Below are positions 13,099 through 64,000 of a stretch of DNA of 64,000 nucleotides, piece after piece. The position numbers were made by a program, and so were the translations under genes. Source of the DNA: an uncultured Chloroflexia bacterium (lineage in GTDB: Bacteria > Chloroflexota > Limnocylindria > Limnocylindrales > CSP1-4); contig CAWFXA010000002.1 of NCBI GenBank assembly GCA_963819655.1, positions 640,001 to 704,000 of the forward strand, written 5' to 3'. Positions within the stretch are counted from its first letter, which is position 1. Every line of letters begins with the position of its first letter. The notes under the pieces are model-generated. The model saw only the letters and a list, made by a program, of their open reading frames with translations, ran no database searches and was not told where the DNA came from.

Positions 13099-13175
13099 GC
13101 CCCCATCGTCTAGAGGCCTAGGACGCCACCCTTTCAAGGTGGAGATCAGGGGTTCGAATCCCCTTGGGGGCACCA
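13099..13175 (+). tRNA. tRNA-Glu (anticodon TTC), CCA encoded
   Basis: Acceptor GCCCCCA/TGGGGGC, anticodon arm CCACC-CTTTCAA-GGTGG, T arm AGGGG-TTCGAAT-CCCCT, 3' ACCA. Confidence 0.97.
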
Positions 13176-13221
13176 CCGCTGTCTTTCGAAGAACGGCCGC
13201 ACCGGACGCGTCCACTCGATC
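13146..13221 (-). pseudogene. Relic 3' end of a probable serine recombinase overlapping the tRNA (left att-like repeat)
   Basis: Minus strand reads IEWTRPVRPFFERQRWCPQGDSNP*; 13160-13221 is 52/62 identical to 17320-17381. Confidence 0.6.
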
Positions 13222-13321
13222 CGTACGCCTCCGGATCTGCGGCCCGCCACAGGGTGTCGGGGACGGTGATCGGTGTGGCTTCGGTGGCCGCACCTCGATC
13301 GCGGGCTCCGTCGCCGATCAC
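13221..13321 (-). pseudogene. Truncated 5' fragment of a nuoB-like gene
   Basis: [18 protein letters not shown] versus [18 protein letters not shown] in 60443..61153; 29 identical bp; its GTG overlaps the oxidoreductase stop (GTGA). Confidence 0.7.
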
Positions 13322-14325
13322 GTGACGACTGCGGAGGGCCGGCCACGCTGCAACGGCGACGTCTCCGAGTCGGTCCCGGATACGCCAGCCACGAGCAGCA
13401 CGACCTTGCCCGGCCCGCTCCTGATGCCCATCCTCCCGTACGCTTGCTGTCCGCGGATGAGCGGCAACTCCGCTGACACGATCGGTCGAAGGTGGCCGGC
13501 ATCGATCAAGCCGGCGATCTCAAGCAGCTGTTCCCGGTCCTGCTTGACGATGAACCAGATCGCTCGTCGGTCGTCGTCGCTCGGGCGCTCGGGTGGACGG
13601 GGCACGGCGATCGACACGAGTCTGCCACGAGGACCAAGGACGTCCCACGATCGCTCCCAGGTTTCGCCACCGACCGTGTCGAACACGAGATCCAGGTCCG
13701 CCACGACATCCTCGAACCGTTGCGACCGATAGTCGATGACGTCGTCGGCGCCGAGTCCACGGACAAGATCGGCGTCACGCGCCGAACTGGTCGCCGTGAC
13801 GCGCGCCCCTCGCCATCGAGCGAGTTGGACGGCGAACGAGCCGACGCCGCCGCCCCCACCGTGGACGAGCACCCGCTGGCCAGGGGCGAGATCGCCCTGA
13901 TCGAAGAGCGCCTGCCATGCCGTCAGCGCGGACAGCGGGACGGCGGCCGCCTCGGCGTGGGTCGCGATGGCGGGCTTGGGCACAAGTTCGTCGGCGCGCA
14001 CCGCCACGAAGTCCGCGTCGGCGCCGTCACGACGGAAATCGATCACTCCGAACACTTCATCCCCGACCTCGATCCCTGCGGCACCCGCTCCCACCTTCTC
14101 GACGACCCCGGAGACCTCATGGCCAGGGATGATGGGCGGCGTGCGTCGAGCGCCGTCATCGCGGAGCCATGTCCCGTTCCAGTCGAGTTCCCCCGGCGAG
14201 ACGCCGCTGGCGTGGACCCGGACTAGGACGTCTTCGGGTCCGAGCGTGGGCAGCGGCACGTCTTCGACGACCAGTCGGGAGGGGTCATGTTGGGCATAGG
14301 CGTGCAGGGCGCGCATAGTCCTCAT
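13318..14325 (-). CDS. NADP-dependent oxidoreductase (MDR / quinone reductase family)
   Basis: IPGHEVSGVV, PLSALTAWQAL, HGGGGGVGSFAVQLA, GKVVL. Confidence 0.9.
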   Translation of the reverse strand: MRTMRALHAYAQHDPSRLVVEDVPLPTLGPEDVLVRVHASGVSPGELDWNGTWLRDDGARRTPPIIPGHEVSGVVEKVGAGAAGIEVGDEVFGVIDFRRDGADADFVAVRADELVPKPAIATHAEAAAVPLSALTAWQALFDQGDLAPGQRVLVHGGGGGVGSFAVQLARWRGARVTATSSARDADLVRGLGADDVIDYRSQRFEDVVADLDLVFDTVGGETWERSWDVLGPRGRLVSIAVPRPPERPSDDDRRAIWFIVKQDREQLLEIAGLIDAGHLRPIVSAELPLIRGQQAYGRMGIRSGPGKVVLLVAGVSGTDSETSPLQRGRPSAVVT

Positions 14326-14409
14326 CTCCTCCGGGCGAGTACAACCTCGCCGTCAGTCAGGGGCCGGACGCCGCTGCGATCCACAGCGTCCGGCCTTCCG
14401 CGATCGAGA

Positions 14410-15606
14410 TCAGCGCAGAGCCCTAAACGCGGCTCGCAGCTCCTCGGAGAACAGCTGCGGCTCCTCCCAGGCGGCGAAGTGGCCGCCCTTGTCGACCGCG
14501 TTGAAGTAGGTGAGGCCGGGGTATACCGCCTCGACCCAGCTGCGCGGGGAGGCCCAGATCTCGCCGGGGAACGTCGTGAAGCCGACCGGCACGGAGACCG
14601 GCGGAGGAGGTTGGCCGCTTGCGATCGCTGCGGCCAGCGCTCGAGCGTCCTCCCAGTACGACCGCGCCGCCGACGCAGCGGTGCCGGTGAACCAGTACAG
14701 CGTGATGTTGTCGACGATGCTCTGCCGGGTAAGATCGCCGACAGGCTCGGCGCCGAGGAGCGCGCGGGAGATCTTGTAGTAGCTGTCCGTGTCGTGGTCG
14801 AGCAACCAGGCCGCCAACGCGACGGGTGAATCCAGCAGTGCGTAGCCGATCGTCTGGGGCCGAGTTGCCATCTCGAGGAAGTAGCCGAAGCCGTCCTGCC
14901 TGAACGTCGCAAGCGCCTCGGCCGCTGCGCGTTCCTGTTCGGATTCCTTGGGCAGTCGATCGCCGATCGCGAGCACCGCCGTGAGCAGGTTCAGGTGGTA
15001 GCCGACCAGACCCTCGACCGCCTGGCGGCCCATCAGGTCCGTGACGAGTGCACCCACGTCGCCGCCCTGCGCGACGTAGCGGGTGTAGCCGAGGCGGCGC
15101 ATCAGGTCCGACCAGGCGCGTGCGGTGCGGCCGGCGTCCCAGCCGAGCTCGGCTGGCTCGCTGGAGAAGCCGTACCCGGGCAGCGACGGCAGCACGAGGT
15201 GGAACGCATCCTGCGCTTGCCCGCCGTGCGCGGTCGGATCGGTCAGCGGTCCGATCGTTTCGAGCAGCTCGATGACCGAGCCGGGCCAGCCGTGCGTCAC
15301 GATCAGCGGCAAGGCGTTCTCGTGCGGGGACTTCACATGGATGAAGTGGATGTCGACGCCGTCGATCTCCGTCGTGAACTGCGGAAGCGCGTTGAGCTTC
15401 GCCTCGGCCTTGCGCCAGTCGTAGTCCGTTGCCCAGTAGCGCGCGAGCTCCTGCATCGCCGCCAGCTGCACGCCCTGTGATCGATCGGCGACCAACTCCT
15501 TGGTGGGCCAGCGTGTCGCCGCGATGCGCCGACGCAAGTCGTCGATCTGTTCCTGTTCGACCTCCACGCGGAATGGACGGATCTCGGTCTCGACGATGGT
15601 CGTCAT
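14410..15606 (-). CDS. Epoxide hydrolase (EHN + alpha/beta hydrolase)
   Basis: IRPFRV, YDWRKAE, HGWPGS, QGGDVG, GGHFAAWEEP. Confidence 0.92.
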   Translation of the reverse strand: MTTIVETEIRPFRVEVEQEQIDDLRRRIAATRWPTKELVADRSQGVQLAAMQELARYWATDYDWRKAEAKLNALPQFTTEIDGVDIHFIHVKSPHENALPLIVTHGWPGSVIELLETIGPLTDPTAHGGQAQDAFHLVLPSLPGYGFSSEPAELGWDAGRTARAWSDLMRRLGYTRYVAQGGDVGALVTDLMGRQAVEGLVGYHLNLLTAVLAIGDRLPKESEQERAAAEALATFRQDGFGYFLEMATRPQTIGYALLDSPVALAAWLLDHDTDSYYKISRALLGAEPVGDLTRQSIVDNITLYWFTGTAASAARSYWEDARALAAAIASGQPPPPVSVPVGFTTFPGEIWASPRSWVEAVYPGLTYFNAVDKGGHFAAWEEPQLFSEELRAAFRALR

Positions 15607-15712
15607 GGCGCTCCTCCAGTGCGTACGCGAACCCGGTTGTACGTCGTCAGCAGCTGTGCTGCGCGATCCCGTTTACCGGGTCAAGTGGTGAGCGCGCAGC
15701 CAGTTCCACGTA

Positions 15713-16939
15713 TCAGCGAACCGGGCGGAACGCTGCGCGGATCTCCTGACTGAACAATTGCGGTTGCTCCCAAGCGGCGAAGTGGCCGCCCTTGTCGACT
15801 TCGTTGTAGTAGATGAGGTTGGGATAGGCTCGTTCCGCCCAGTTGCGCGGAGCCTGGTATTGCTCGCCCGGAAAAATCGTGATCGCGACCGGGATAGCCA
15901 CACCCTTCGCGTTGAAGAAGCCGCCCTTGTATTCCCAATAGAGGCGAGACGCCGATACGCCGGTGTCTGTCAGCCAATAGAGCGTGATGTTGTCGAGGAT
16001 CTCGTCACGAGTCAGTTCGCCCGCGGCACTCGTGGTGCGGTCTAGGGCGGCCACGACTGCCGCGGCGGGCTGGCCGTCAGCGTCGTTGTGGTCGAGGAGC
16101 CAAGCGGCAAGGCCGACGGGCGAATCCGCGATGCCGTACAGCGTCTGCGGGCGAGCCGCCATCATCCTCGCGTACTCCACCTGTTTGAAGGTGCGGACCA
16201 GCTGGTCGCAGGCACGCTTCTCGACCGACGAGAGACCGTCCGGCGCCGGATCGCCGCGACTCAGAGCGTCGTTGATGGCAGTGGGTACGGTGGCCGGCAT
16301 GTTCGTGTGGATGGCGAGGAGTCCTGTCGGTGCCTGCAGCCCCATCTGGTCGACGACGAAAGCGCCCCAGTCGCCGCCCTGGGCCACGTAGCGGGTGTAC
16401 CCGAGGCGCTGCATCAAGGTGTTCCACGCTAGGCCGATGCGCTCCGGACCCCACCCGACACGCGTCGGCTTCGCGGAGAATCCGTACCCCGGCATCGACG
16501 GGATGACGACATCGAAGGCGTCGCCGGCGATGCCGCCATGGGCGGTGGGGTCCGTCAGTCGATCGATGATCTTGAGTTGCTCGATGATCGATCCGGGCCA
16601 GCCGTGACTGACGATGATCGGCAACGCGCCCTCGTGTCCTGAACGGACGTGGATGAAATGGATGTCCAGTCCGTCTATCTCGGTGATGAACTGCGGCAGG
16701 CCGTTCAGCCGCGCTTCCACCCGTCGCCAGTCGTAGTCCGTCATCCAATGGCGCACGAGTCGCTGGACCATCGCGAGCGGCACGCCCTGGGACTGATCCG
16801 TGACCGTCTCCTTGTCCGGCCAGTTCGTCATCTCCAGGCGGCGTCCGAGGTCGTCGATCCTCGCCTGGGGCACGTCGACTCGGAATGGCCGGATCGCGGC
16901 ATCTACGGACGCCTTCGGCTCGGGACTAACGATCGTCAT
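15713..16939 (-). CDS. Epoxide hydrolase (paralog of 14410..15606)
   Basis: HGWPGS, QGGDWG, GGHFAAWEQP. Confidence 0.92.
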   Translation of the reverse strand: MTIVSPEPKASVDAAIRPFRVDVPQARIDDLGRRLEMTNWPDKETVTDQSQGVPLAMVQRLVRHWMTDYDWRRVEARLNGLPQFITEIDGLDIHFIHVRSGHEGALPIIVSHGWPGSIIEQLKIIDRLTDPTAHGGIAGDAFDVVIPSMPGYGFSAKPTRVGWGPERIGLAWNTLMQRLGYTRYVAQGGDWGAFVVDQMGLQAPTGLLAIHTNMPATVPTAINDALSRGDPAPDGLSSVEKRACDQLVRTFKQVEYARMMAARPQTLYGIADSPVGLAAWLLDHNDADGQPAAAVVAALDRTTSAAGELTRDEILDNITLYWLTDTGVSASRLYWEYKGGFFNAKGVAIPVAITIFPGEQYQAPRNWAERAYPNLIYYNEVDKGGHFAAWEQPQLFSQEIRAAFRPVR

Positions 16940-17180
16940 CTCCGTTCCTCCCCGCTGTGACCCGTTCGAAGTGGACTTGGCTTCACAGCGGAACGGATGA
17001 CGAACTCGACGATGCCGCCTGGAGTAGTCCCAAGATGCGCGGCGTCAGGGGCACCCGCCGATGGATGGCACGCGCGTAAGACCTGCACCCCGGGAGGGGG
17101 CCCTCCGCTGCGAGTGCCTTGGGCGAATCTGGGGCCCACCGCGATCGACGTCATGACAGTCCGTCATTACCGAGGGTGTC

Positions 17181-17321
17181 AGGCGCTCCTCATCGTGGGT
17201 CAGGTCGTCGTACGTGAACGGGAACGGTCGCCTCGTCACGGGCGAGAGCGAGCTCGATCCGGAGGTGACCGTCGACGACGTTACCGGTCGAGCGGTCGAC
17301 TATGACCTCGGTGACCCACCC
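17181..17321 (-). pseudogene. Fragment of a ParB/Srx-like N-terminal domain (phage-type ParB-methylase), frameshifted
   Basis: GWVTEVIVDRSTGNVVDGHLRIELALARDEATVPV, then a frameshift to TYDDLTHDEERL; DGHxR motif; abuts the right repeat. Confidence 0.6.
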
Positions 17322-17437
17322 CTTTGGAAGCACCACCGCTGTCGGTCGAAGAAAGGCCGGACCGGAGGCGTTCATTCGATCGCCTCCACCTGGCGGTCTC
17401 GGATGACCACCCGCTGGATCACCATCCGGCTGAGTTC
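17318..17437 (-). pseudogene. Second, longer serine-recombinase C-terminal relic containing the right att-like repeat
   Basis: ELSRMVIQRVVIRDRQVEAIE*TPPVRPFFDRQRWCFQRG; TGA at 17374-17372 where the left copy has TGG. Confidence 0.6.
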
Positions 17438-17456: not shown

Positions 17457-18389
17457 TCAAGGTGGTGAGGGACTTGGCCAGGGCGGATTCACATTGTTTG
17501 AAATGACGTATAGGTCGTAGAGCCGATCCCAGAGGGTGACGTACACCCGCGAGGGTGGAGCCGTGCCACGCGGCATAGCGAACCAGATCCCCGTGAGATC
17601 CAGCGGCTCCGCGAGGGCACAGAACCCGTAGATCCGGTCGTCCACGTCGGCGTCGACGATGTCCACCCAGGTCCGGCTAGCGCTGTCGTTGAGACCGCAC
17701 GGCTCGAGGTCCGGGGCTGCCGCGAACAACTCGGCCGGGTAGTCGAACCAGTTCGCGATGGTCAGTTCATATCGGGTGAACGGGTTCCCGAACGCGTCGT
17801 CGTAGTCCTCGGTACCCGCTGCGGCGAGCACCGGATCGGGGAGGGCGGGGTACTCCGGCTCGGGCACGGGCTCCGTATCGACCCCGAACCAGTCGAGCCA
17901 TAGCTCACCGTCGTGGTCGGCCGCCGCGACCCAACCAGTCGTGATCCCGTCCCGGAGGGTTGAGTCCACGAGACGCACTCGATACCACCAGTAGCCCGAC
18001 GCCGCGACGGGTCCCCCGAGGACCTCCAAAACCGTCCCGATCGCGAGCAGCGGCTGGTACTTCGCCGAGTCGGCGCTCACGCGCGGCTTGGACCGGACCC
18101 GAAGATCGTCGGAGACCGTAACCACGAGCGCCTCGGGCTGGAACGGGGGTCTCGGACCCATCGTCGGGGTTCGCGCCGGCGTGCCCGGGCTCGGCTCGAA
18201 GCCCGCCTGCGGCGAGCTGAGACCCGTTGGTGCAGCGAATGACGGTCCGGCGGAAGGTACGCCTGCGCTCACCGAGGGCAGCGGAGGCCACGGACTCACT
18301 CGACTCACCGAGGCCGCCGGGGACGGCGTAGGCGCGCCGCAGCCGGCGATGACGATGGCCACGAAGAGGATCGAGCCGAGTCGTCCCAC
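17457..18389 (-). CDS. Lipoprotein with Pro-rich linker and SH3b-like domain
   Basis: Lipobox VIAGC; DLRVRSKP..GTVLEVLGGPV..GYWWYRV..GWVA pattern. Confidence 0.7.
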   Translation of the reverse strand: MGRLGSILFVAIVIAGCGAPTPSPAASVSRVSPWPPLPSVSAGVPSAGPSFAAPTGLSSPQAGFEPSPGTPARTPTMGPRPPFQPEALVVTVSDDLRVRSKPRVSADSAKYQPLLAIGTVLEVLGGPVAASGYWWYRVRLVDSTLRDGITTGWVAAADHDGELWLDWFGVDTEPVPEPEYPALPDPVLAAAGTEDYDDAFGNPFTRYELTIANWFDYPAELFAAAPDLEPCGLNDSASRTWVDIVDADVDDRIYGFCALAEPLDLTGIWFAMPRGTAPPSRVYVTLWDRLYDLYVISNNVNPPWPSPSPP

Positions 18390-18488
18390 GTTTAGCTCCC
18401 CACAGGCTTGTCAGCACCGACAAGGTTGCGATGCAGCTCAGCCCCGACCCGGAGGATCGGAGCTGAGCGTCGCGAGGTTCGGCCGATG

Positions 18489-19097
18489 TCAGCCGTTGCT
18501 GTGCTCACTCCAGCTATACGAGGCCATGATGGCCCAGCCGAAGTCTCGGGTACCCATCGAGCCGAGATCGATGGCCCCGGTCCCAGGACGTTCCTTCCCG
18601 CGATAGCGAGAGTGCGAGTTGTACTCGCCGGGGATCTTGAAGGTTCCGGAGTTGCGGAACGTCGCGACGGAGCCTGTCCCTGTGACGTCCACGGTGACCC
18701 TCACGGTGTCGAATGCGACGTCGTACGACTCCGCGCACTCGTCGACGCTCTCGATGGCGATCTCGAAGTCGCCGGCCGCGGAGCCCGCGCTGAGCTTCGT
18801 GTCGACACTGATCGTCAGGCCGTTCGCCCACCCAAAAACGCGCGTGCCCTGGAAGCCGTAGACACCATCCGGTCCGTCGCATGGGGTGTACTCGCCGGTT
18901 TCCTCGAAGATCTCGCCGTACGCCCCGGACGACTCGTCGAACAGATACACCGCCCCATATCCCGAGTCGCTGTACCACTCGCCTTGGATCGTCCGGCCGC
19001 TACCGCTGAGGTTGCTCGTGTTCGGCCCAGCGGCGACCGGCGCCGCCGTTGCCAGTGCGAGTGCACCGACCAACGGGATGATCATGAGTCTGCGCAT
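18489..19097 (-). CDS. Secreted hypothetical beta-rich protein
   Basis: Signal peptide MRRLMIIPLVGALALATAAPVAA; RBS-like gaagggg upstream. Confidence 0.75.
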   Translation of the reverse strand: MRRLMIIPLVGALALATAAPVAAGPNTSNLSGSGRTIQGEWYSDSGYGAVYLFDESSGAYGEIFEETGEYTPCDGPDGVYGFQGTRVFGWANGLTISVDTKLSAGSAAGDFEIAIESVDECAESYDVAFDTVRVTVDVTGTGSVATFRNSGTFKIPGEYNSHSRYRGKERPGTGAIDLGSMGTRDFGWAIMASYSWSEHSNG

Positions 19098-19197
19098 CTC
19101 TGTTGCCCCTTCCGCTCCCCGATCGCGCCGACCGCATGGCCTGCTCGTCGGATGCTGGGATGACGCAGCTCGGGCGAGTCTGTGGCGCGATCACGCA

Positions 19198-19213
19198 TGT
19201 CAGAGATTTGACA
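19198..19213. promoter_or_regulatory. Palindromic operator-like site TGTCA-N6-TGACA
   Basis: TGTCAGAGATTTGACA about 100 bp upstream of the secreted-protein gene. Confidence 0.4.
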
Positions 19214-19383
19214 GTCGGCCACCTGCAACAAGTGGTGGGGTTCGGCGTCGGAAGTACTTCATGGCGGAACTCATGTTCGATGGCCATCCGGCCGTAGCAG
19301 GCCGCACCGGCCTGGAGTTCCGCGACGCGCGTCGCTGACGCTGACCCGGTTCGGACCTGGGCACCACCACCGCGTGAGCCGGG

Positions 19384-20721
19384 TCAGGCCGCCGGGACCG
19401 GTAGCCCTGTGTCGCGGTCATCACGGGTGGGGACGGCGGCGTATCGAGCAGACAGCTTGCGGTAGCTCGTCGAGCGGAGAGCCAGCAGCGTGACGAGCAG
19501 GCCGATCGAGCCAGCCACGATGAAGATCAGCGCGATGCCCCGCTCAGGCCCGACACCGAACCACGCGCCGATGGCGGCTGCGCCAGCACCGTCGGTCATG
19601 AACGGGATCACCCAGAACTGAGCGATCGGCCCGATCATGAAGGCTGTGATCGGTGAGGCCGCTGTCTCCAGGGTCTGCGCGAATCCGAAGACGCGGCCCT
19701 GCTCGCCGAGCGGGACGACCTTCTGGATGACCGTCTGTTCCGACGCTTCCGCCACCGGGATCAGCGTCATGTACACGAAGAAGCCGATCGCGAGCGGCAA
19801 GATGGCCGAGACGATCGGAAAGGCGATCGTCACGCCCCAGAGCACGACGTTGACCAGGAGAAGGGTCCGGACCGGATTGACGCCCAGCCCACGCCGGGCC
19901 ACAGCGATGCCGCCGATGATGAACCCGAGACTGGACAAACCGAGGAGCACGCCATAGGCCTCGACCGACATGAGGGTCAGCCCGTACGGGTCGATGAGCG
20001 CCATGAACACGCCGCCAAGGAAGTTGTTGAAGGTGCTGAACAGCAGAAGCGCGAGCAGACCGGGAACGATCCGCACCGCTCGGATCGATCCCTTTACGTC
20101 GATGATGGTCGGGTCGCCCTCGCTGGGCTCGGGTGCGTCCTCGACTATGCGGATGGTGATGAGATGCGCTAACGCAACCGCGGTCAGCACGATCGCGATG
20201 ACGAGGCTGGCGCCCATGCCGAGCAGGCCGATGGCCAGGCCACTGAACACCGAGGTGATGGCGAATGCGACGCCGTTCACCGTGCCGACGAGCCCGTTGG
20301 CCCTATCGCGGCGGTCCTCGGGCACAAGGAGGGTCACCGTCGTCGCCAGCGCCACACTGCGCAGATTGCCCGCGATCGCGCCGGCGAGCACGAGCGTGGT
20401 GAATGCCCAGAACGCTGGGTGGCCGAGATCCTGCAGCGAGCCTGCAGGTGCCATCAGGTAGACGGCGCCGGCGAGCAGGAAAGCCGCCAATGTCAACGCG
20501 TTCGAGAGCAGCATCGAGGCCTTGCGTCGATGTCGGTCGACGAATGTCCCGAAGAACATCCCGGATACGGCGAGCAGCAGCATGTACCCGCCACCGATGA
20601 CCGCGCTGGCCACGACCGACCGTGTCTCCAGGTACACCCAGAACGTCAGGGCGAACCACAGGAAGTTGTTCGTGACGTTGGCGACGAGCGTGTTGGCGAC
20701 GAGCAGGCGGAAAGTCTTCAT
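19384..20721 (-). CDS. MFS transporter (DHA3-like efflux)
   Basis: About 12 TM; GTFVDRHRRK, RDRANGL, QGRVFG motifs; ATG at 20721. Confidence 0.9.
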   Translation of the reverse strand: MKTFRLLVANTLVANVTNNFLWFALTFWVYLETRSVVASAVIGGGYMLLLAVSGMFFGTFVDRHRRKASMLLSNALTLAAFLLAGAVYLMAPAGSLQDLGHPAFWAFTTLVLAGAIAGNLRSVALATTVTLLVPEDRRDRANGLVGTVNGVAFAITSVFSGLAIGLLGMGASLVIAIVLTAVALAHLITIRIVEDAPEPSEGDPTIIDVKGSIRAVRIVPGLLALLLFSTFNNFLGGVFMALIDPYGLTLMSVEAYGVLLGLSSLGFIIGGIAVARRGLGVNPVRTLLLVNVVLWGVTIAFPIVSAILPLAIGFFVYMTLIPVAEASEQTVIQKVVPLGEQGRVFGFAQTLETAASPITAFMIGPIAQFWVIPFMTDGAGAAAIGAWFGVGPERGIALIFIVAGSIGLLVTLLALRSTSYRKLSARYAAVPTRDDRDTGLPVPAA

Positions 20722-20909
20722 AGTGGCGTGATCGTCAGCATATGCGGCCCGCGATGGCAGACGGTTGCGGCACACGCGGCGATCGCTTCGTTACAACGGT
20801 GATGCCCCATGATGCTCGCGGACTCGATCGTCAAAGCCGTCCGCGGCGAGCCCGTGGAGGATCAGGTAGACGATTCGGATCGCCGGGGGAAGCTGACGAG
20901 GAGGTCGGT

Positions 20910-21158
20910 ATGCCGAAGTTCATGGACGTCCACCACGGGATGCACGGTGTCACGCCGGAAGCTCTCAAGGCGGCGCATCAGGCAGATCTTGATATCCAGG
21001 CCGACGAAGGAGTGGACTTCCAGCGCGCATGGGGCGATCCAGACTCCGGCATGGTCTGGTGTGTGTCAGAGGCTCCGAACGCCGAAGCCGTGCGCAAGAT
21101 CCACGAGCGAGCGGGCCACCCGGCGACCGAGGTGTATCCCGTACCGGTCGAGGCCTGA
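20910..21158 (+). CDS. DUF4242 / SCO4226-like small metal-binding protein
   Basis: MPKFMDVH..AHQADL..WCVSEAPNAEAV..HERAGHP; RBS gaggagg. Confidence 0.85.
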   Translation: MPKFMDVHHGMHGVTPEALKAAHQADLDIQADEGVDFQRAWGDPDSGMVWCVSEAPNAEAVRKIHERAGHPATEVYPVPVEA

Positions 21159-21215
21159 CCGTACGTCGGCGAGGGTGTTGACCCGTCGCACCGGCACCTT
21201 CGGTACGTTTCGATA

Positions 21216-21243
21216 GCCCCGACGCTGACAGGTGCGTCGGGGC
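21216..21243 (+). terminator. Perfect 10-bp stem hairpin after the DUF4242 gene
   Basis: GCCCCGACGC-tgacaggt-GCGTCGGGGC. Confidence 0.5.
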
Positions 21244-21396
21244 ACGGATCGCCATCTTCGCGGCTGGTCCACCGCGCGGAACAGAACGCCGCGGATCGGG
21301 GCAGGATGGGTCCTCGCGTCCGGCGCCCAGCCACCGATGGCAGTCCTCCACGTCCTCCCCTGAGCCTGGCCAACGCCCCTGCTACCATCGCTCGCG

Positions 21397-21765
21397 ATGG
21401 AGATCATGGGCATCCAGCTCCGGACGATCATCAGCGATAACAACGCGAAGCGATGCGCCGGCTGCGACCAGGTGATCGAAGGCACGCCGTGGCGCGTCAA
21501 CTTGCTCGACATCGTCGCCGCGGAGACGCCCGTCGGCTGGGCCGAGCGACCGGTGATCAACCCCGGGCCGTTCCAATTCCACGGGGATCCGGTGTGCGTC
21601 CGCCGCTGGATGGCCGCCCGCGACTACCTGTTCTGTCGCAAGGGCGAGGTCCGCGAGATCATGCGACCGGTCCCGATCCCGGGCCCTGACGAGGCGCCCG
21701 ATGCAGGTCGATGGGGCTTGTGCGACGGCATCCATCGCGACGATCACGAGTTCGTGCCCGCCTGA
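21397..21765 (+). CDS. Hypothetical Cys/His-rich (zinc-binding-like) protein
   Basis: CAGC..FHxxxxC..FC..LCDGIH..H; TACCAT 8 nt upstream. Confidence 0.75.
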   Translation: MEIMGIQLRTIISDNNAKRCAGCDQVIEGTPWRVNLLDIVAAETPVGWAERPVINPGPFQFHGDPVCVRRWMAARDYLFCRKGEVREIMRPVPIPGPDEAPDAGRWGLCDGIHRDDHEFVPA

Positions 21766-58168: not shown

Positions 58169-59224
58169 ATGCTGACCGACGTCCTCGTTCTGCTCGTCAG
58201 CCTCGTCGTCATCCTGTTCGCGGCCGAGCTCTTCACCAACGGCATCGAATGGATGGGTCGCAAGCTCGGTCTCGGCGAAGGCGCCGTCGGATCGGTGCTT
58301 GCGGCGGTCGGCACCGCGCTGCCCGAGACCCTCATCCCGATCATCGCGATCGTCTTCGCGACGGCCGAGGGGTCGCACGAGGTCGGGGTCGGCGCGATCC
58401 TGGGCGCACCGTTCATGCTGTCGACGCTGGCGATGTTCGTGACGGGCGTGGCCATCGTCGCGTTCCGGGCGCGCCGGACGATGGGCACCGTCGTGGCCGT
58501 CGATACCGGGATCCTCGCGTACGACCTGCGCTACTTCTTCGTCGGGTACGGACTGGCCGTAGGGGCGGCCTTCCTGCCGGCAGACCTGTCCGCCGCTCGC
58601 TGGATCGTTGCGGTCGTCCTGATCGGCCTGTACATCTGGTATGTCAAGGGTCACTTGGCAGGCGAGGCGGCCGATCACAGCGAGGATCTCGCGCCGCTCC
58701 GGATGCGCACGCTCGATCGAGGCGCCTATCGACTCGAGCCAGGTGATCCGCGGCTCCGCGTCATCGTTCTCCAGGTCCTGGCGGCCATCGGCCTGATCAT
58801 CATCGGCGCGGTGTTCTTCATCGATGCCGTCAACAACGTCGCCCACACGCTCGGAGTGAGCGAGGTGCTCCTGGCCCTCGTGATCGCCCCGATCGCCACG
58901 GAACTGCCCGAGAAGTTCAACTCGATCATCTGGGTTCGCCAGGGCAAGGACACTCTCGCGCTCGGCAACATCACCGGCGCGATGGTCTTCCAATCGACGA
59001 TCCCGACCGTCGTCGGCCTGACCCTGGCAGCGGACACCTGGGTCGTCCAGGAGGGCTCGTACACGGCCTTTGCGTCGGCGGCGATCGCGCTCATCGCGAC
59101 TGCGGTGATCTTCATCCCGGCACGTCGGCGGGGCGGCCTGGAGGCGCGCCACCTGCTCGTCGGCGGGCTGTTCTACCTGGGTTACCTGATCTTCGTGGTC
59201 GGCCTGATCGCAGGCGTGTTCTAG
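58169..59224 (+). CDS. Sodium:calcium exchanger (CaCA) family antiporter
   Basis: Alpha repeats GTALPET and ATELPEK..GNITG. Confidence 0.88.
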   Translation: MLTDVLVLLVSLVVILFAAELFTNGIEWMGRKLGLGEGAVGSVLAAVGTALPETLIPIIAIVFATAEGSHEVGVGAILGAPFMLSTLAMFVTGVAIVAFRARRTMGTVVAVDTGILAYDLRYFFVGYGLAVGAAFLPADLSAARWIVAVVLIGLYIWYVKGHLAGEAADHSEDLAPLRMRTLDRGAYRLEPGDPRLRVIVLQVLAAIGLIIIGAVFFIDAVNNVAHTLGVSEVLLALVIAPIATELPEKFNSIIWVRQGKDTLALGNITGAMVFQSTIPTVVGLTLAADTWVVQEGSYTAFASAAIALIATAVIFIPARRRGGLEARHLLVGGLFYLGYLIFVVGLIAGVF

Positions 59225-59340
59225 CGTCTCCGCCTGGGCCCGCGCGGCTCGGGCTAGCACGACGGTCACGGGGTCATACTGTGGAGCGAGTCCAGCCGCC
59301 TGAGCGGGATGCCGTCGCGGCGGCCTGGCAGGAGGCCGAT

Positions 59341-60430
59341 ATGTCCGACGACACCCGCAGCCGTGACCACCCGACCGGCGCGGCGACGATGTCCGTGCCG
59401 ACCAGCGGGCCCGGCTTGATCCGGTCCATCGCTCATCGCCTCGCAGGCGAGCAACTCGGGCTGCCAGTCGAGGGGCACCTGGCATCGTTCAGCGGCGCGA
59501 CCGGCTGGCTCAACTCCGAGCCGCTGACGCCAGAAGGACTCCGGGGACGGGTGGTCCTCGTCGACTTCTGGACATACACGTGCGTCAACTGGCTCCGGAC
59601 GCTGCCCTATGTCCGGGCCTGGGCGGCGAAGTACGGCGACGCCGGCCTCACCGTCGTCGGGGTGCACACGCCGGAGTTCGGGTTCGAGCGAAACGTCGAC
59701 AACGTCGTACGCGAGTCGCGCAACTTCCGGGTCGAGTTTCCGATCGCACTCGACCCCGACTACGCGGTCTGGAGCGCGTTCGCGAACCACTTCTGGCCGG
59801 CCGTCTACATCGCCGACGTCGACGGACGGATCCGTTACCACCACTTCGGCGAGGGTGAGTACGCCGCGATCGAGATGGCGATCCAGCAGCTCCTCCTGGA
59901 CGCGGGCGTGGAAGACGTCGATCAGGATCTCGTGGACGTCGACCCCGTCGGGCTCGAGGTGGCCGCCGACTGGCGGACGCTCCAGTCTCCTGAGTCCTAC
60001 ACCGGCTATGGGCAGAGTGCCGGCTTCGCCCAGGGCGAGGTCGCTCGCTTCGACGAACCCCATGCGTACACCGCCCCCTCGCCATTGCCCCTCAACTACT
60101 GGGGGCTCGCGGGGACGTGGACGGTTGCCCGACACGCTGCCGTGGTGAACGAGCCTGGCGGACGGATCGCGTTCCGCTTCCATGCCCGCGACGTCAACCT
60201 CGTCATGGGACCGGCGTCGCGCGGTGCGTTCTATCCCGTTCCGGGTCTTCCTCGACGGTCAGCTCGCGCGGGACGTCCACGGGACCGACGTCGACCCCGA
60301 CGGCAGCGGAGTCGTGAACGACCAGCGCACGTATCAACTGATCCGCCAACGTGGGCCGATCGCCGACCGCACCTTCGAGATCGAGTTCCTCGATCGAGGT
60401 GCGGAGGCTTACTGCTTCACGTTCGGCTGA
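59341..60430 (+). CDS. Thioredoxin-like / DipZ C-terminal-like redoxin (TCVNW active site); +1 frameshift at ~60229
   Basis: WLNSEPL, DFWTYTCVNW, GVHTPEF, HHFGEGEY, SPESY, FHARDVNLVM, then PFRVFLDG..YQLIRQ..FTFG in the next frame. Confidence 0.85.
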
Positions 60431-60442
60431 GGCGGGAACGAT

Positions 60443-61153
60443 ATGGCCGACGATCCTTCGACTTCGGACGCACCCGTACCCGCACCCGCAGTCGCATTGT
60501 CGCCACGCGATCCCGTCGCACCGATCGTCGTGCCGAACACGCTCTGGCGGGCCGCAGATCCGGAGGCGTACGGCGGGGGTCAACCCAGCGACATCACCCA
60601 CCTGGCCGAGTTCGAGGCGAGCGGGCTCGGTCGACGAGACGACGCACGCTGGTCGGGCGCCCTCGAGGTCATCCCGACCAAGGCCGACGTCGTGCTCGAC
60701 CTGATCCGGTTGAACAGCCTATGGCCATTGCTCTCGGGCCTCGCCTGCTGCGCCATCGAGATGATCTCGGCGGCGACCAGCAAGAACGATATGGACCGGT
60801 TCGGCTGGTTCCCGTTCCGGGCCAGCCCACGCCAGGCCGACGTCCTGATCGTCGCCGGGACGTGCACGACGAAGATGGCCGGTCCGCTCATCCGGCTGTG
60901 GGACCAGATGCCGGAGCCCAAGTGGTGCATCGCCCTGGGCGACTGCACCTGCTCCGGCGGTCGCTATAAGCGGAGCTATTCGACGATCGAGGGGATCGAC
61001 CGGATCATGCCCGTCGACATCTACATCCCCGGCTGCCCGCCGCGGCCGGAGGGTCTGATCTTCGGGTTCCTCAAGCTCCAGCAGCTGATCAAGGACCGTC
61101 GCGGCCACTGGCCGGAGCGGGCGATCGGGCCGAACGTGCCGGACGGCGTCTAG
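60443..61153 (+). CDS. nuoB: Orphan NADH-quinone oxidoreductase subunit B-like 4Fe-4S protein
   Basis: [45 protein letters not shown]; no other nuo gene in the window. Confidence 0.9.
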
Positions 61154-61372
61154 CGCCTGGCGATCGCGCGTCCCAGCGCGGCCGGTCAGAAGCCCCGCCG
61201 GGGGTATGTGCCCCAGGTCCGCATCGGCCGCGCGACCACGCCCGCTACCCGGTAGCGGGTAAGGCAGAACTCCGGCCAGCAGCCGCGTGCGACGTCCGCC
61301 AGCTGTGATGCCAGTGCCGCCCGCATCTGCGACCTTCAGATGAACTCCCTGTTCACTGAAGGAGACCCACAA

Positions 61373-61948
61373 ATGTCCTCAGATCGGAACCAAGACGCTC
61401 GCGCCAGAGGCACGCGGATCGCAGCCCGGTGGCTCGGCATCGGCGTGTTGGCGTTGGCCGCTGCCGGCTGCGCCACGGGAGGCGCCGGTTCGGCCGGCTA
61501 CGGAGCCCCGGCGGCGTCCGCCGCCGCGGTGCCCGCCACGGGCGAGGCCATCACTGCGCAGACCACGTCGCTCGGCGTGATCCTGGTCGACGGCGCCGGC
61601 CGCACCGTGTACGAGTTCGCCAACGACACCAACGGCACGTCGGCATGCACCGGGGCGTGCGCGGCCAACTGGCCGCCCGTCGCGGCGCCGTCGCCGCTGC
61701 CCACGTCGCTGCCCGGAGTGACCGGCCAGCTCGGCGCGATCACCCGCCAGGACGGGACCAGCCAGATCACCGTGGCCGGCCACCCGCTCTACACGTTCGC
61801 CGGCGACACCGCGCCCGGCCAGACCAACGGTCAAGGCAAGGTTCTCGACGGTGGCCTCTGGACAGTCGCGTCCGCGGCGGGCGCGCCGGTGGCGAACGCC
61901 AACCCGCCCAGCGCTGCGCCGGCAGCCCCGGTCGCTCCCGGCTACTGA
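61373..61948 (+). CDS. Secreted repeat lipoprotein (COG4315, Y-X4-D repeats)
   Basis: Lipobox AAGC; GRTVYEFAND, CTGACAANWPP, GHPLYTFAGD. Confidence 0.85.
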   Translation: MSSDRNQDARARGTRIAARWLGIGVLALAAAGCATGGAGSAGYGAPAASAAAVPATGEAITAQTTSLGVILVDGAGRTVYEFANDTNGTSACTGACAANWPPVAAPSPLPTSLPGVTGQLGAITRQDGTSQITVAGHPLYTFAGDTAPGQTNGQGKVLDGGLWTVASAAGAPVANANPPSAAPAAPVAPGY

Positions 61949-61955
61949 GACTTGT

Positions 61956-61986
61956 GCGGCAGGCAGGCCGGGGGCCTGCCTGCCGC
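61956..61986 (+). terminator. Perfect 14-bp hairpin after the lipoprotein gene
   Basis: GCGGCAGGCAGGCC-GGG-GGCCTGCCTGCCGC. Confidence 0.6.
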
Positions 61987-62031
61987 CGAGAGAGCCCATC
62001 GCGGCCGATGAACCGATAGGAGCGGGAGCCC

Positions 62032-62634
62032 ATGCGACCCGACATCAAGCCCTCGATGCCGTTCCCCGACTACGAGCTGCCTGACCAGAACGGCCGCCGC
62101 CGCCGGCTGTCGGAGATGCAGGGCGGCGACTCGATGATCCTTGTGCTGTCGCGCGGCCACTTCTGCCCCAAGGATCGCCGCCAGCACGCCAACCTCGTCG
62201 ACATGTACCCGGAGATCCGGGTCGCCTACACGAAGATCGTCACGATCAGCACCGACAACCTGCTCGAACTCAACGAGATGCGCGATGGGCTCGGCGCCGG
62301 GTGGCCGTTCCTGTCCGACCCCGGCCGAACCATCCAGAAGGACCTCGACATCGCCGAGTACACCGACCCGAGGCATGATCCGATGATCCCGTACACGCTC
62401 GTCCTCGAGCCGGGCCTCCGGATCTACTCGATGTACAACGGGTACTGGTACTGGGGTCGCCCGTCGAATGATGACCTGCGCCGCGATCTGCGGGAGGTCA
62501 CCCGGAGGATCCGGCCCGACTGGGATCTCGGCACGCCGGGCCTGCGGGAGAAGTGGGACCAGGGCCAGCGCGATGACGACTTCTGGCCGTATGGCCGCTC
62601 GATGCGCGAGGTCCTTGCCGCCCAGGAGGCATGA
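62032..62634 (+). CDS. AhpC/TSA redoxin-domain protein (single Cys, FCPKD)
   Basis: FPDYELPDQNG, RGHFCPKD, WPFLSDP, YNGYWYWGRP. Confidence 0.82.
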   Translation: MRPDIKPSMPFPDYELPDQNGRRRRLSEMQGGDSMILVLSRGHFCPKDRRQHANLVDMYPEIRVAYTKIVTISTDNLLELNEMRDGLGAGWPFLSDPGRTIQKDLDIAEYTDPRHDPMIPYTLVLEPGLRIYSMYNGYWYWGRPSNDDLRRDLREVTRRIRPDWDLGTPGLREKWDQGQRDDDFWPYGRSMREVLAAQEA

Positions 62635-62698
62635 GCCTGACATCCAGGCGCACCCCGGCGTCCAACCCAGGCCCATCCAGGAGATCAAGGAGCACGTC

Positions 62699-63172
62699 AT
62701 GTCCAAGATCCACGTCAAGCAGACGACCACGCTGACGCCAGAGCAGTTCATCGCGGGGCTCACCGACTTCGGCCCGGGTCGCTCGAAGCTCTTCCCAAAC
62801 AGCGCCGACCAGTACCTCAAGGTGCATGACGAGGGCCCCGATCAAGCCGACGTCACCGAGGGCTCGGCCGGGATCTGGGAACGCCTGCACTACGACTGGT
62901 CCGATCCCAACCGCGTCGTGCTCACGACCACCGACTCCAACGTGTGGGGAGGCGACTCGGGCCACACCTACACCTTCACACGACAGCCCGGCGGGACGAC
63001 CGATGTTGACGTCGTTATGGTGCGCGAGGGCAAGAACCTCAGGGGACGGGTGCTCGCGCTCGTCGTCGGGATGGTCGGCAAGCGTGCGCTGGAGAAGGGG
63101 CTCGGACAGACCATCAAGGCGATCGAAGCCCGGAACCAACGCCAGCCCCAGTTGCGGGTGTCGAGATCCTGA
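62699..63172 (+). CDS. Hypothetical SRPBCC/START-like protein
   Basis: RBS aaggag; LTDFGPGR..ADVTEG..WERLHYDWS pattern. Confidence 0.65.
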   Translation: MSKIHVKQTTTLTPEQFIAGLTDFGPGRSKLFPNSADQYLKVHDEGPDQADVTEGSAGIWERLHYDWSDPNRVVLTTTDSNVWGGDSGHTYTFTRQPGGTTDVDVVMVREGKNLRGRVLALVVGMVGKRALEKGLGQTIKAIEARNQRQPQLRVSRS

Positions 63173-63187
63173 CTCCGAGAGCTCGCT

Positions 63188-64000
63188 TCAGACCCGAGCG
63201 TCGGCCTCTGACCGGGCCGGAACACTGAAGCGGTAGCCGAGTCCTCGAACGGTTTCGATCGAGCCCGCGTGGTCTCCCAGTTTCCGCCTTAGCGAGCGAA
63301 CGTTGGCCTCGATCACGTTGCTCCCGCCCGCGTATTCGTAGCCCCAGACGTCTCGCAGCAGCGCGGCGCGCTCCACGACGTGCCCCTGGTGCTGCTGGAG
63401 GTAGCTGATCACGTCGAACTCGAGCTTCGTGAGGTCGACCCGTCGCCCGTCAAGGACGAGCTGATGCTGCACGAGATCCAGGATCGAGTCGTCCTCGATC
63501 TGGAGCTCCGCGGCGACGAGCCTGGCCAACCAGCCGTCGATCGACGACGGACCGAAATCATTCTGTGTCGCGTAGTACGGCACGCCATCGAACTCGATGG
63601 GATCGCCCGGTAGCAGCTCGAAACCGAGCGGGGCCACCATCGGGCCGTACGTGGCGACGTCCTGGACGATCGAATAGATCCGCCGGAGGGTCGGCCGCAT
63701 CTCCATGTACAGGCGCTTGATGTCGAGCCAGCTGGCGGCCTGGACCGGAGATGGCGCCTCGCCGTGATCGCGAGACAGCCAGGCCCGGCTGTACAGGACG
63801 CGTTGGCCGCTTGGCACGGGATGCCGCCGGAGATGATCCCAACACCTGGCGAGGAAGAGATCCTCTTCGACGAGCCGGTGGCTCACGCTGTCGATCTCGC
63901 ACACGGTATAGAAGCCGGCGACCGTATCAAGCCGGTCACGCAGGACCCGGAAGGCATCCGGCGCGAGGCGCCACCATGCCGCCATCACGCTCGCCGAAGC
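63188..64000 (-). CDS. Transcriptional regulator with C-terminal OmpR-type winged helix and a non-receiver N-terminal part (5' end outside the window)
   Basis: LTKLEFDV..RDVWG..SNVIEANVRSLRRKL..ETVRGLGY; frame open to the window edge. Confidence 0.8.
   Translation of the reverse strand, partial: ASASVMAAWWRLAPDAFRVLRDRLDTVAGFYTVCEIDSVSHRLVEEDLFLARCWDHLRRHPVPSGQRVLYSRAWLSRDHGEAPSPVQAASWLDIKRLYMEMRPTLRRIYSIVQDVATYGPMVAPLGFELLPGDPIEFDGVPYYATQNDFGPSSIDGWLARLVAAELQIEDDSILDLVQHQLVLDGRRVDLTKLEFDVISYLQQHQGHVVERAALLRDVWGYEYAGGSNVIEANVRSLRRKLGDHAGSIETVRGLGYRFSVPARSEADARV

Follow-up and report, generated by a model that had tools for sequence, protein, structure and literature searches.

Two remnants of serine integrase genes at a tRNA-Glu gene point to successive insertions in a Limnocylindrales-type Chloroflexota genome

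Serine integrases that insert at tRNA genes and attachment (att) sites that lie within the integrase gene (int) have each been published, and both are rare. The sections on tRNA targets in Bordeleau, Ghinet and Burrus (2012, PMC3429521) report eight serine integrases clustered at the mycobacterial tRNA-Leu and call such cases few or uncommon. An att site within int is found in the streptococcal integrative and conjugative elements (ICEs) of the rumA site, whose large serine recombinases (LSRs), according to the account of the integrases in Ambroset et al. (2016, PMC4701971), carry Resolvase, Recombinase and usually Zn-ribbon domains, and whose integration swaps the 3' end of int, changing the length and sequence of the C-terminus. 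Here we describe a locus with both features in a 64-kb stretch of contig CAWFXA010000002.1 (the window), where two remnants of LSR genes, fossil 1 and fossil 2, lie at and downstream of a tRNA-Glu(TTC) gene. We consider it probable that a composite island, now decayed, occupies 13176 to ~21376 at the tRNA-Glu(TTC) attachment site of LSR-mobilised elements of Limnocylindrales-type Chloroflexota (taxon as given in the record titles), that the int gene of these elements spans its own phage-type attachment site (attP), and that two successive entries were followed by decay.

The locus resembles the rumA elements in the domains of its intact integrases, in the position of the att site within int and in the predicted exchange of the int 3' end. 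It differs from them in its target, a tRNA instead of the protein-coding rumA gene, in a C-terminus that is read antisense to that tRNA, and in its hosts, Chloroflexota by record titles instead of Firmicutes. The actinobacterial ICEs (AICEs) at a tRNA-Leu gene in Mycobacterium, as presented in the tRNA-related part of PMC3429521, likewise combine a serine-family integrase with a tRNA target; they use another tRNA and belong to another phylum, and that part mentions neither an overlap of int with the tRNA nor a changed C-terminus. The Islander islands (PMC12424338 and the relevant parts of PMC4383910) share the restoration of the tRNA 3' end, the repeated use of the same tRNA, and arrays and decayed remnants beside the tRNA, but their integrases are of the tyrosine type, whereas those considered here are of the serine type with a core of ~14 bp.

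The attachment target, tRNA-Glu(TTC) at 13099-13175 on the plus strand, is the sole tRNA called by ARAGORN within the window. Genome-wide, the program found 50 tRNA genes in the assembly (3 contigs, 3.49 Mb), with Glu-TTC as a single copy and one further gene, Glu-CTC, for the same amino acid. A repeat search showed that the segment 13160-13221, which consists of the final 16 nt of the tRNA gene and 46 nt beyond it, recurs at 17320-17381 with 52 of 62 positions identical (84%, script count). The tail sequence is present at just these two places in the whole genome (E 1.3e-12), and a repeat of 62 nt at this identity is far beyond chance. On the minus strand, both copies can be read as the end of the same protein. 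Fossil 1 (13146-13220) comprises the last 24 codons and the stop of such a gene, cut off at 13220/13221; its frame ends ...IEWTRPVRPFFERQRWCPQGDSNP with the stop at 13146-13148 within the tRNA, nine codons (WCPQGDSNP) and the TGA being antisense to the tRNA. Fossil 2 (17309-17437) retains approximately the last 43 codons, is bordered at 17457 by the 3' end of the following gene and reads ...ELSRMVIQRVVIRDRQVEAIE, a TGA at 17372-17374 that replaces a conserved Trp, and then TPPVRPFFDRQRWCFQRG.... A first-pass annotation, made from the letters of the window, had reported this repeat and the two minus-strand peptides; our recount gave the identical figure, and on re-reading the frames its description of the peptides proved exact.

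In the relatives G004 and G006, a minus-strand gene of ~480-490 codons is intact and finishes with the same tail. This gene converges on tRNA-Glu(TTC) and ends antisense inside it, with its stop at tRNA position 48 and its last 8-9 codons plus the stop overlapping the 3' part of the tRNA. Since both proteins contain the domains Resolvase (PF00239), Recombinase (PF07508) and Zn_ribbon_recom (PF13408), all above the curated Pfam cut-offs, they are LSRs. The motif I-Y-V/I-R-R/Q-S is kept in the alignment of the intact relatives, and its serine is presumably the nucleophile. No named NCBIfam equivalog fits the intact int: XisF, the best model, has a cut-off of 375 bits and reached 64.5, and the scores of the Ccr models (CcrA/B/C) likewise stayed far below the required values. 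The best PDB match of the G006 protein was the catalytic domain of a Gin-type invertase, a weak hit (E 1e-4), and no close sequence relationship to the streptococcal rumA integrases was detectable.

With tblastn, fossil 1 shares 19 of 25 residues with the G004 int (E 2e-6) and 18 of 24 with that of G006, while fossil 2 shares 27 of 44 (E 8e-10) and 22 of 43, respectively. These two tails are the sole significant matches of the G004 and G006 integrases in the 64-kb window, and both copies are thus the 3' end of an LSR gene. The proposal of the first-pass annotation that the peptides are C-terminal tails of serine recombinases running into their tRNA att site, each left over from an integrase of which most is lost, is borne out: matching recombinase C-termini beside tRNA-Glu occur in G004 and G006, and 24 and ~43 codons are what remains. 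The N-terminal catalytic domain with the nucleophilic serine is absent, and tblastn found no other int-like stretch in the window. The fossils are inert scars and not genes, and there is no present activity. Because fossil 2 has three changes in the core, a stop codon and a best identity of 81% to the tails retrieved from other genomes, against 95% for fossil 1, we judge it the more decayed of the two; the two fossils are 84% identical to each other, and the tails nearest to fossil 1 are those of L143 and L132 (55/58).

The att core CCCCTTGGGGGCAC (13160-13173, plus strand) is the block common to the tRNA 3' end and to contigs that carry the attP form, and its left end is also the left start of the copy-2 repeat. 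A second, degenerate core, which differs from the tRNA copy at 3 positions, was located by the repeat search and a pattern scan at 17320-17333 (plus strand). Integrated copies of int end ...CPQGDSNP inside the tRNA. Five tRNA-less loci (L104, L106, L108, L120, L122), by contrast, share the core and the P arm and diverge from the tRNA left of the core, where their sequence mirrors the right arm imperfectly. In L104 and L106 the gene remains in frame and reads ...CPQG plus 18 residues, GLGTRPLLSDDDLAWYAA or ALRTRPLLTDDVLAWYAA, ending AWYAA, and the P arm of G006 encodes ...DSSTRPLSEDDPLAWWVA; L108, L120 and L122 have the same arm DNA, but frameshifted or read out of frame. By these alignments, int spans its own attP and has a different C-terminus in the putative free form. 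As the continuation past the core differs, integration would swap the int tail for the DSNP read off the tRNA. Furthermore, the stop of the free-form int in L104 and G006 (L092 1940-2000) overlaps the start of a ParB-like/DNA-methyltransferase gene (ATGA), so that integration would separate int from this gene (parB) and send parB to the far end of the element.

The free-form tails end AWYAA or AWWVA and may resemble an ssrA-like degradation tag; a role as a tag is speculation. Integration-dependent immunity of mycobacteriophages (Dedrick et al., 2021, PMC8092301) offers a parallel, since in the systems treated in the corresponding sections of that paper attP lies in a gene whose C-terminal tail is lost on integration. 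Many of these tails are ssrA-like (XXXAA), whereas the free-form tails described here end AA or VA; moreover, the split gene of the mycobacteriophages encodes the repressor and their integrase is tyrosine-type, whereas here the integrase gene itself is split. Myxophage Mx8, as summarised in PMC4701971, also has attP within its integrase gene and replaces the C-terminus (IntP/IntX) with a short different one, but Mx8 Int is a tyrosine recombinase with 112 residues replaced, compared with ~18 here.

To place the island in its chromosomal context, we compared the locus in 15 relatives. Six of them (G007, G001, G015, G012, G010, G020) have an empty site, in which a conserved flank gene of 123 aa begins 112-150 nt past the tRNA start. 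Because of these empty sites, the region is an insertion of ~8.2 kb and not core sequence. The flank-gene orthologue of the window lies at 21397-21762 (76% identity to the G007 protein, E 8e-66). Occupied sites in other relatives span 1, 2, 3, 10.5 and 41 kb, and remnants of the tRNA 3' end stand directly before the flank gene in G004 and G009. In the window, the left attachment site (attL, the tRNA plus the P' tail) is clear, and an internal copy of the core lies at 17320. As to the first-pass annotation, the empty tRNA-Glu sites that it had proposed to look for in relatives are present, repeats and cargo are not conserved as core sequence, and its estimate that the older element may extend to ~21.3 kb agrees with the limit set by the flank gene; the right edge itself, however, has no recognisable right attachment site (attR).

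The conservation of the tail beside the tRNA could alternatively mean that it was kept for a function, as a tRNA 3' trailer, a terminator or a small conserved open reading frame (ORF), and is not inert. The same tail, i.e., the 46 nt after the tRNA, is indeed conserved in 6 of the 15 relatives, and a motif consisting of the tRNA end plus the tail was found in 21 of 131 genus genomes, whereas the reversed control gave no hit. However, in the six relatives with an empty site the flank gene follows the tRNA directly and without the tail, retained pieces come in a continuous range of lengths, copy 2 has an in-frame stop, no terminator-like site was seen, and the folding energies are ordinary (z -0.59 and -1.59). 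We find a retained function scarcely credible and read the tails as scars. The piece next to the tRNA would survive, and the erosion of int would stop short of it, because tRNA-Glu(TTC) is single-copy and deletions cannot enter it.

An indication of a second element comes from the left side of copy 2. The left boundary of its homology to the tRNA is that of the att core, and abutting this core lies a fragment of a ParB-like/DNA-methyltransferase gene (17184-17320, minus strand), frameshifted and lacking approximately its first 68 codons. The 45 codons of the fragment have homologues in G000:C2 near 722 kb and in L094, L122 and L092, and they match PHROG 498 (E 1.8e-4) and PHROG 620 (E 4e-4); a Pfam search with the fragment and with the L122 and L094 proteins returned no family at E<=0.01. 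In G006, the intact int at the tRNA lies on one contig, and the contig with the flank gene has the order methylase-ParB (minus strand), P arm, core (L092 2001-2014), a decayed older tail of ~45 nt, ~0.9 kb and the flank gene. G006 thus has a newer element adjoining the fossil of an older one, with the same junction as copy 2 in undecayed form. Since the ParB fragment lies left of the core in the position and orientation that the P side of an element predicts, as in G006, copy 2 is supported as a tandem junction, P(new)-core-P'(old). The claim that two related elements had integrated one after the other is thereby strengthened.

A different origin of the repeat has to be weighed against this arrangement, namely that there is one fossil only and that the repeat is a target duplication caused by a staggered-break or template-switch insertion of a 4.1-kb segment (a block of chromosomal DNA plus the ParB fragment). 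The repeats directly flank the insert (13222-17319), the insert is mostly chromosomal DNA cut at both ends, copy 2 is nearest to copy 1 (84%, next best 81%), and a paralogue 47 kb off matches 29 nt at 13221 exactly, which hints at template switching. On the other hand, the duplication shares its left edge with the att core, whose limits come from the attP-form contigs and so from independent data; the ParB fragment is where, and oriented as, the P side of an LSR element predicts; and G006 has the same junction with an intact element to its left. We therefore regard an origin from one fossil as unlikely. In the public sequencing runs, one X4 contig joins 13203 to 17376, with 37 nt on its short side, and one X6 contig shows the tail of a longer relative; the X4 join is no proof of an ancestral state with a single fossil, because the two copies repeat each other.

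If two elements did enter, the history may be reconstructed as follows. An older element would have integrated at tRNA-Glu, its P' side now being fossil 2. A second, related element would then have recombined at the same core, giving the order tRNA, fossil 1, [element], parB fragment, core, fossil 2. Subsequent deletions would have left 24 and ~43 codons of the two int genes and removed the 5' portion of parB along with the P arm, and a 3.95-kb chromosomal block with a NuoB-like fragment, an alcohol dehydrogenase (ADH) gene and two epoxide hydrolase genes would have come to fill the proximal element.

Several observations weigh against this history of two entries. No third core, P arm, tail or tRNA remnant (attR, P-core-B') marks the right edge anywhere in 17.5-21.4 kb, and in G021, the closest relative, a counterpart of copy 2 is absent beside the homologue of the 310-aa gene that follows fossil 2 in the window. 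An alignment of the sequence left of copy 2 to five P arms was no better than shuffles, of which 103-315 of 500 reach the score; with the P arm unrecognisable, a deletion of ~240-880 nt (P arm plus 5' end of parB) has to be assumed. The DNA between the fossils is mostly a chromosomal block that is found elsewhere in G021 and G057 with no element genes near, and nothing survives of the proximal element's own interior. No contig bridging the junctions at 13221 or 17168-17320 was present among the matches listed from four public runs, so the junction at 13221 is documented by one assembly; the contigs of these runs, compared at 90% likeness, come from related organisms, and the share of the window's words in the runs is <=0.15. 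The genome itself has no member of the tRNA-Glu integrase family at E<=1e-20. Finally, serine integrases of the phiC31 and Bxb1 type are not known to recombine attP with any site but the bacterial attB, and the entry of an element beside a resident fossil, at an attL-like or attR-like site, would fall outside this rule. A similarity of the left flank of copy 2 to the L114/L129-type junction was also considered and rejected, as 654 of 1000 shuffles reach its score.

The relocated block itself (13221-17168, minus strand) is cut inside genes at both ends. It consists of the first codons of a NuoB-like gene (13221-13275), a zinc-ADH gene (13318-14325) and two genes for epoxide hydrolases with EHN and alpha/beta hydrolase fold domains, EH1 (14410-15606) and EH2 (15713-16939), all on the minus strand and assigned by Pfam and by comparison with G021. 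Over 3959 nt the block is 91.1% identical to G021:C12 170138-174088, where it is inverted and lies 45 kb from the G021 tRNA-Glu. The gene order EH2-EH1-ADH-NuoB-like is the same in G021 and G057, and the syntenic place of the block is empty in the genome studied here. Of the 131 genus genomes, 47 have ADH-EH clusters, among them G007 with its empty tRNA site. In the 9.1-kb region around the block in G021 we found no integrase or transposase, but DUF4386, PrpD, a phosphonate-binding protein and the NuoB-like gene. Judging from these comparisons, the 3.95-kb block is relocated chromosomal DNA and not evident LSR-element cargo. The view that two elements met at this tRNA thus stands as far as the two fossils are concerned, but not for the ADH and EH genes between them, which would come from a block with 91% identity to G021 DNA at another locus.

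The junctions of the block were also considered as possible errors in a metagenome-assembled genome, at 13221, at 17168-17320 or at both. Besides the missing bridging contigs, the exact repeat of 29 nt at 13221 would be compatible with such an error. The sequence past this repeat is, however, not that expected from a mis-join there, the assembly has just 3 contigs, repeats of 84% identity are too diverged to collapse, and the same type of junction occurs independently in G006, which makes an assembly artefact very improbable. The last 29 nt at the junction are identical to the NuoB-like paralogue at 60545-60573, 47 kb away, whereas the G021 orthologue differs at 7 of 29 positions; gene conversion or template switching may account for this identity. 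The exact repeat is part of a 55-nt inverted match between the first codons of the NuoB-like gene (13221-13275, minus strand) and 60519-60573 (plus strand). The inverted match of 37-55 nt could have meant that the 47 kb between 13221 and 60573 had been inverted, but this was rejected, since 21379-59223 and the upstream side of the tRNA are collinear with G021.

Two elements could also have met in another order or by another route. The second may have entered the distal attR of the first, in which case the proximal fossil would be the older one, or an incoming circle may have recombined homologously with the int of the resident element, so that an attP remained inside. Both routes should yield the same map (tRNA, P', element, P-core-P', element), and integrated and attP-form copies do coexist in single assemblies (L101 with L106, L109 with L120, L113 with L122). 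However, decay has gone further in the distal fossil than in the proximal copy, in the window as well as in G006, whose proximal copy is intact and whose distal tail is ~45 nt long; this fits entry on the tRNA side. We consider these alternatives quite improbable and retain the succession of an older distal and a newer proximal element.

Entry on the tRNA side raises the question of the partner site. The usual explanation of tandem entry for Islander islands, in which the full core is kept at attL, is not simply transferable to serine integrases. As a tentative idea, which we think possible but rather doubtful, this integrase family may enter a site that already bears a fossil, using attP and an attL-like partner against the rule of attP and attB only; the coupled rewriting of the C-terminus, from the 18-residue AWYAA/AWWVA tail translationally coupled to parB to DSNP, would be a possible switch acting on the stability or directionality of the integrase. 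Such entry could perhaps occur because the P' half, which has to imitate the tRNA 3' end, would stay attB-like. If this is true, the tRNA-Glu locus accretes arrays whose fossils record past entries.

The integrase family was followed through the genus and through a wider collection with one genome per species; the two sets overlap, as some loci come from the same genomes. The G006 int has matches in 21 of 131 genus genomes at E<=1e-20. Fourteen of these loci adjoin tRNA-Glu(TTC), four adjoin tRNA-Arg(CCT) and are paralogues with 37-46% identity, and three are without a tRNA. A full-length open int was found only in G006 and G004, the G021 gene being near full length and frameshifted, whereas eleven genus genomes contain 5'-truncated fragments, ranging from residues 119-494 down to 427-494, all of which reach the last residue beside the tRNA. 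One-sided erosion of int is therefore the rule in the genus. Twelve of the 21 genomes with the motif of tRNA end plus tail, including the one studied here, are without a Glu-type int fragment at E<=1e-20, and short scars like those of the window are therefore common. The wider collection gave 51 loci, mostly in assemblies titled Limnocylindrales or Chloroflexota: 31 have tRNA-Glu(TTC), which in 30 cases overlaps the int 3' end, 7 have tRNA-Arg(CCT), 1 has tRNA-Arg(TCG) and 12 are without a tRNA.

Whereas few serine integrases at tRNA genes were known in 2012, according to the tRNA-related sections of PMC3429521, a whole clade of soil and freshwater Chloroflexota with sister lineages at tRNA-Arg can now be added. 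In a literature search, the combination of a serine integrase with a tRNA target and an antisense-tRNA tail was not met with in any paper, supplements and the TIGER paper (PMC7192596) being outside its scope; a search for Limnocylindr* together with integrase, again with supplements outside its scope, found no description of a tRNA-Glu LSR family. The window contributes two scars that are invisible to gene callers and date the repeated use of one site. Its contents are inert, and the interesting biology lies in the intact relatives and the tandem junctions. Together with G006, it poses a concrete question on how serine integrases discriminate between half-sites. Short tails antisense to a tRNA (...RPFFE..CPQGDSNP) mark decayed serine-integrase islands in metagenome-assembled genomes, and the intact G004 and G006 enzymes, whose 14-bp core is defined and lies in a tRNA that is universally present, are possible tools.

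The sister integrase clade lies at tRNA-Arg(CCT), and once at tRNA-Arg(TCG), in L071, L073, L082, L086, L123, L128, L130, L135, L137, L138, L144 and L145, and is 36-47% identical to the G006 int where full length. In L071, L073, L082 and L086 the int frame continues antisense into the tRNA-Arg, for ~20 codons in L071 and L073 (...PPDGFEPPTQALGRPRS..). At L129 (3950-5250), a full-length int is parted from tRNA-Glu by ~1.3 kb at its 3' end; this spacer is a candidate insertion sequence with a DDE-type transposase-like frame, as judged by eye.

The distal remnant of the island (17457-21376) was characterised by Pfam and extends to the right edge without a visible att remnant. It contains a 310-aa ORF (17457-18389, minus strand), a 202-aa ORF (18489-19097, minus strand), a gene for an MFS transporter (19384-20775, minus strand) and a SCO4226-like gene (20742-21158, plus strand), and its part from 17461 to 19259 is 79.5% identical to a stretch within the 41-kb island of G021. 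The right flank (21377-21765, plus strand), delimited by searching the genome with the G007 flank protein and by comparing the flanks of the relatives, consists of the motif CCCTGCTACCATCG followed by the flank gene, here of 122 aa. The motif, at 21377-21390, lies a few bases 5' of the flank-gene start and is conserved in every relative examined, at empty and occupied sites alike; perhaps it serves the flank gene as a promoter or as a leader element.

EH1 and EH2 are tandem paralogues, and more paralogues occur elsewhere in the genome. The block that contains them is 91% identical between the genome studied here and G021, compared with ~80% for the flanking synteny, and lies at different loci in the two (G021:C12 165594-174751; G000:C2 609014-609048), which suggests a recent exchange or relocation. 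A second region that is non-syntenic with G021 covers ~59200-64000 of the window and continues beyond it (G000:C2 699-739 kb; L164 8100-9402). This region carries a NuoB-like gene, a MalT-type regulator gene, a DUF4386 gene and a ParB-like/DNA-methyltransferase gene split in two ORFs, and it may be another decayed element.

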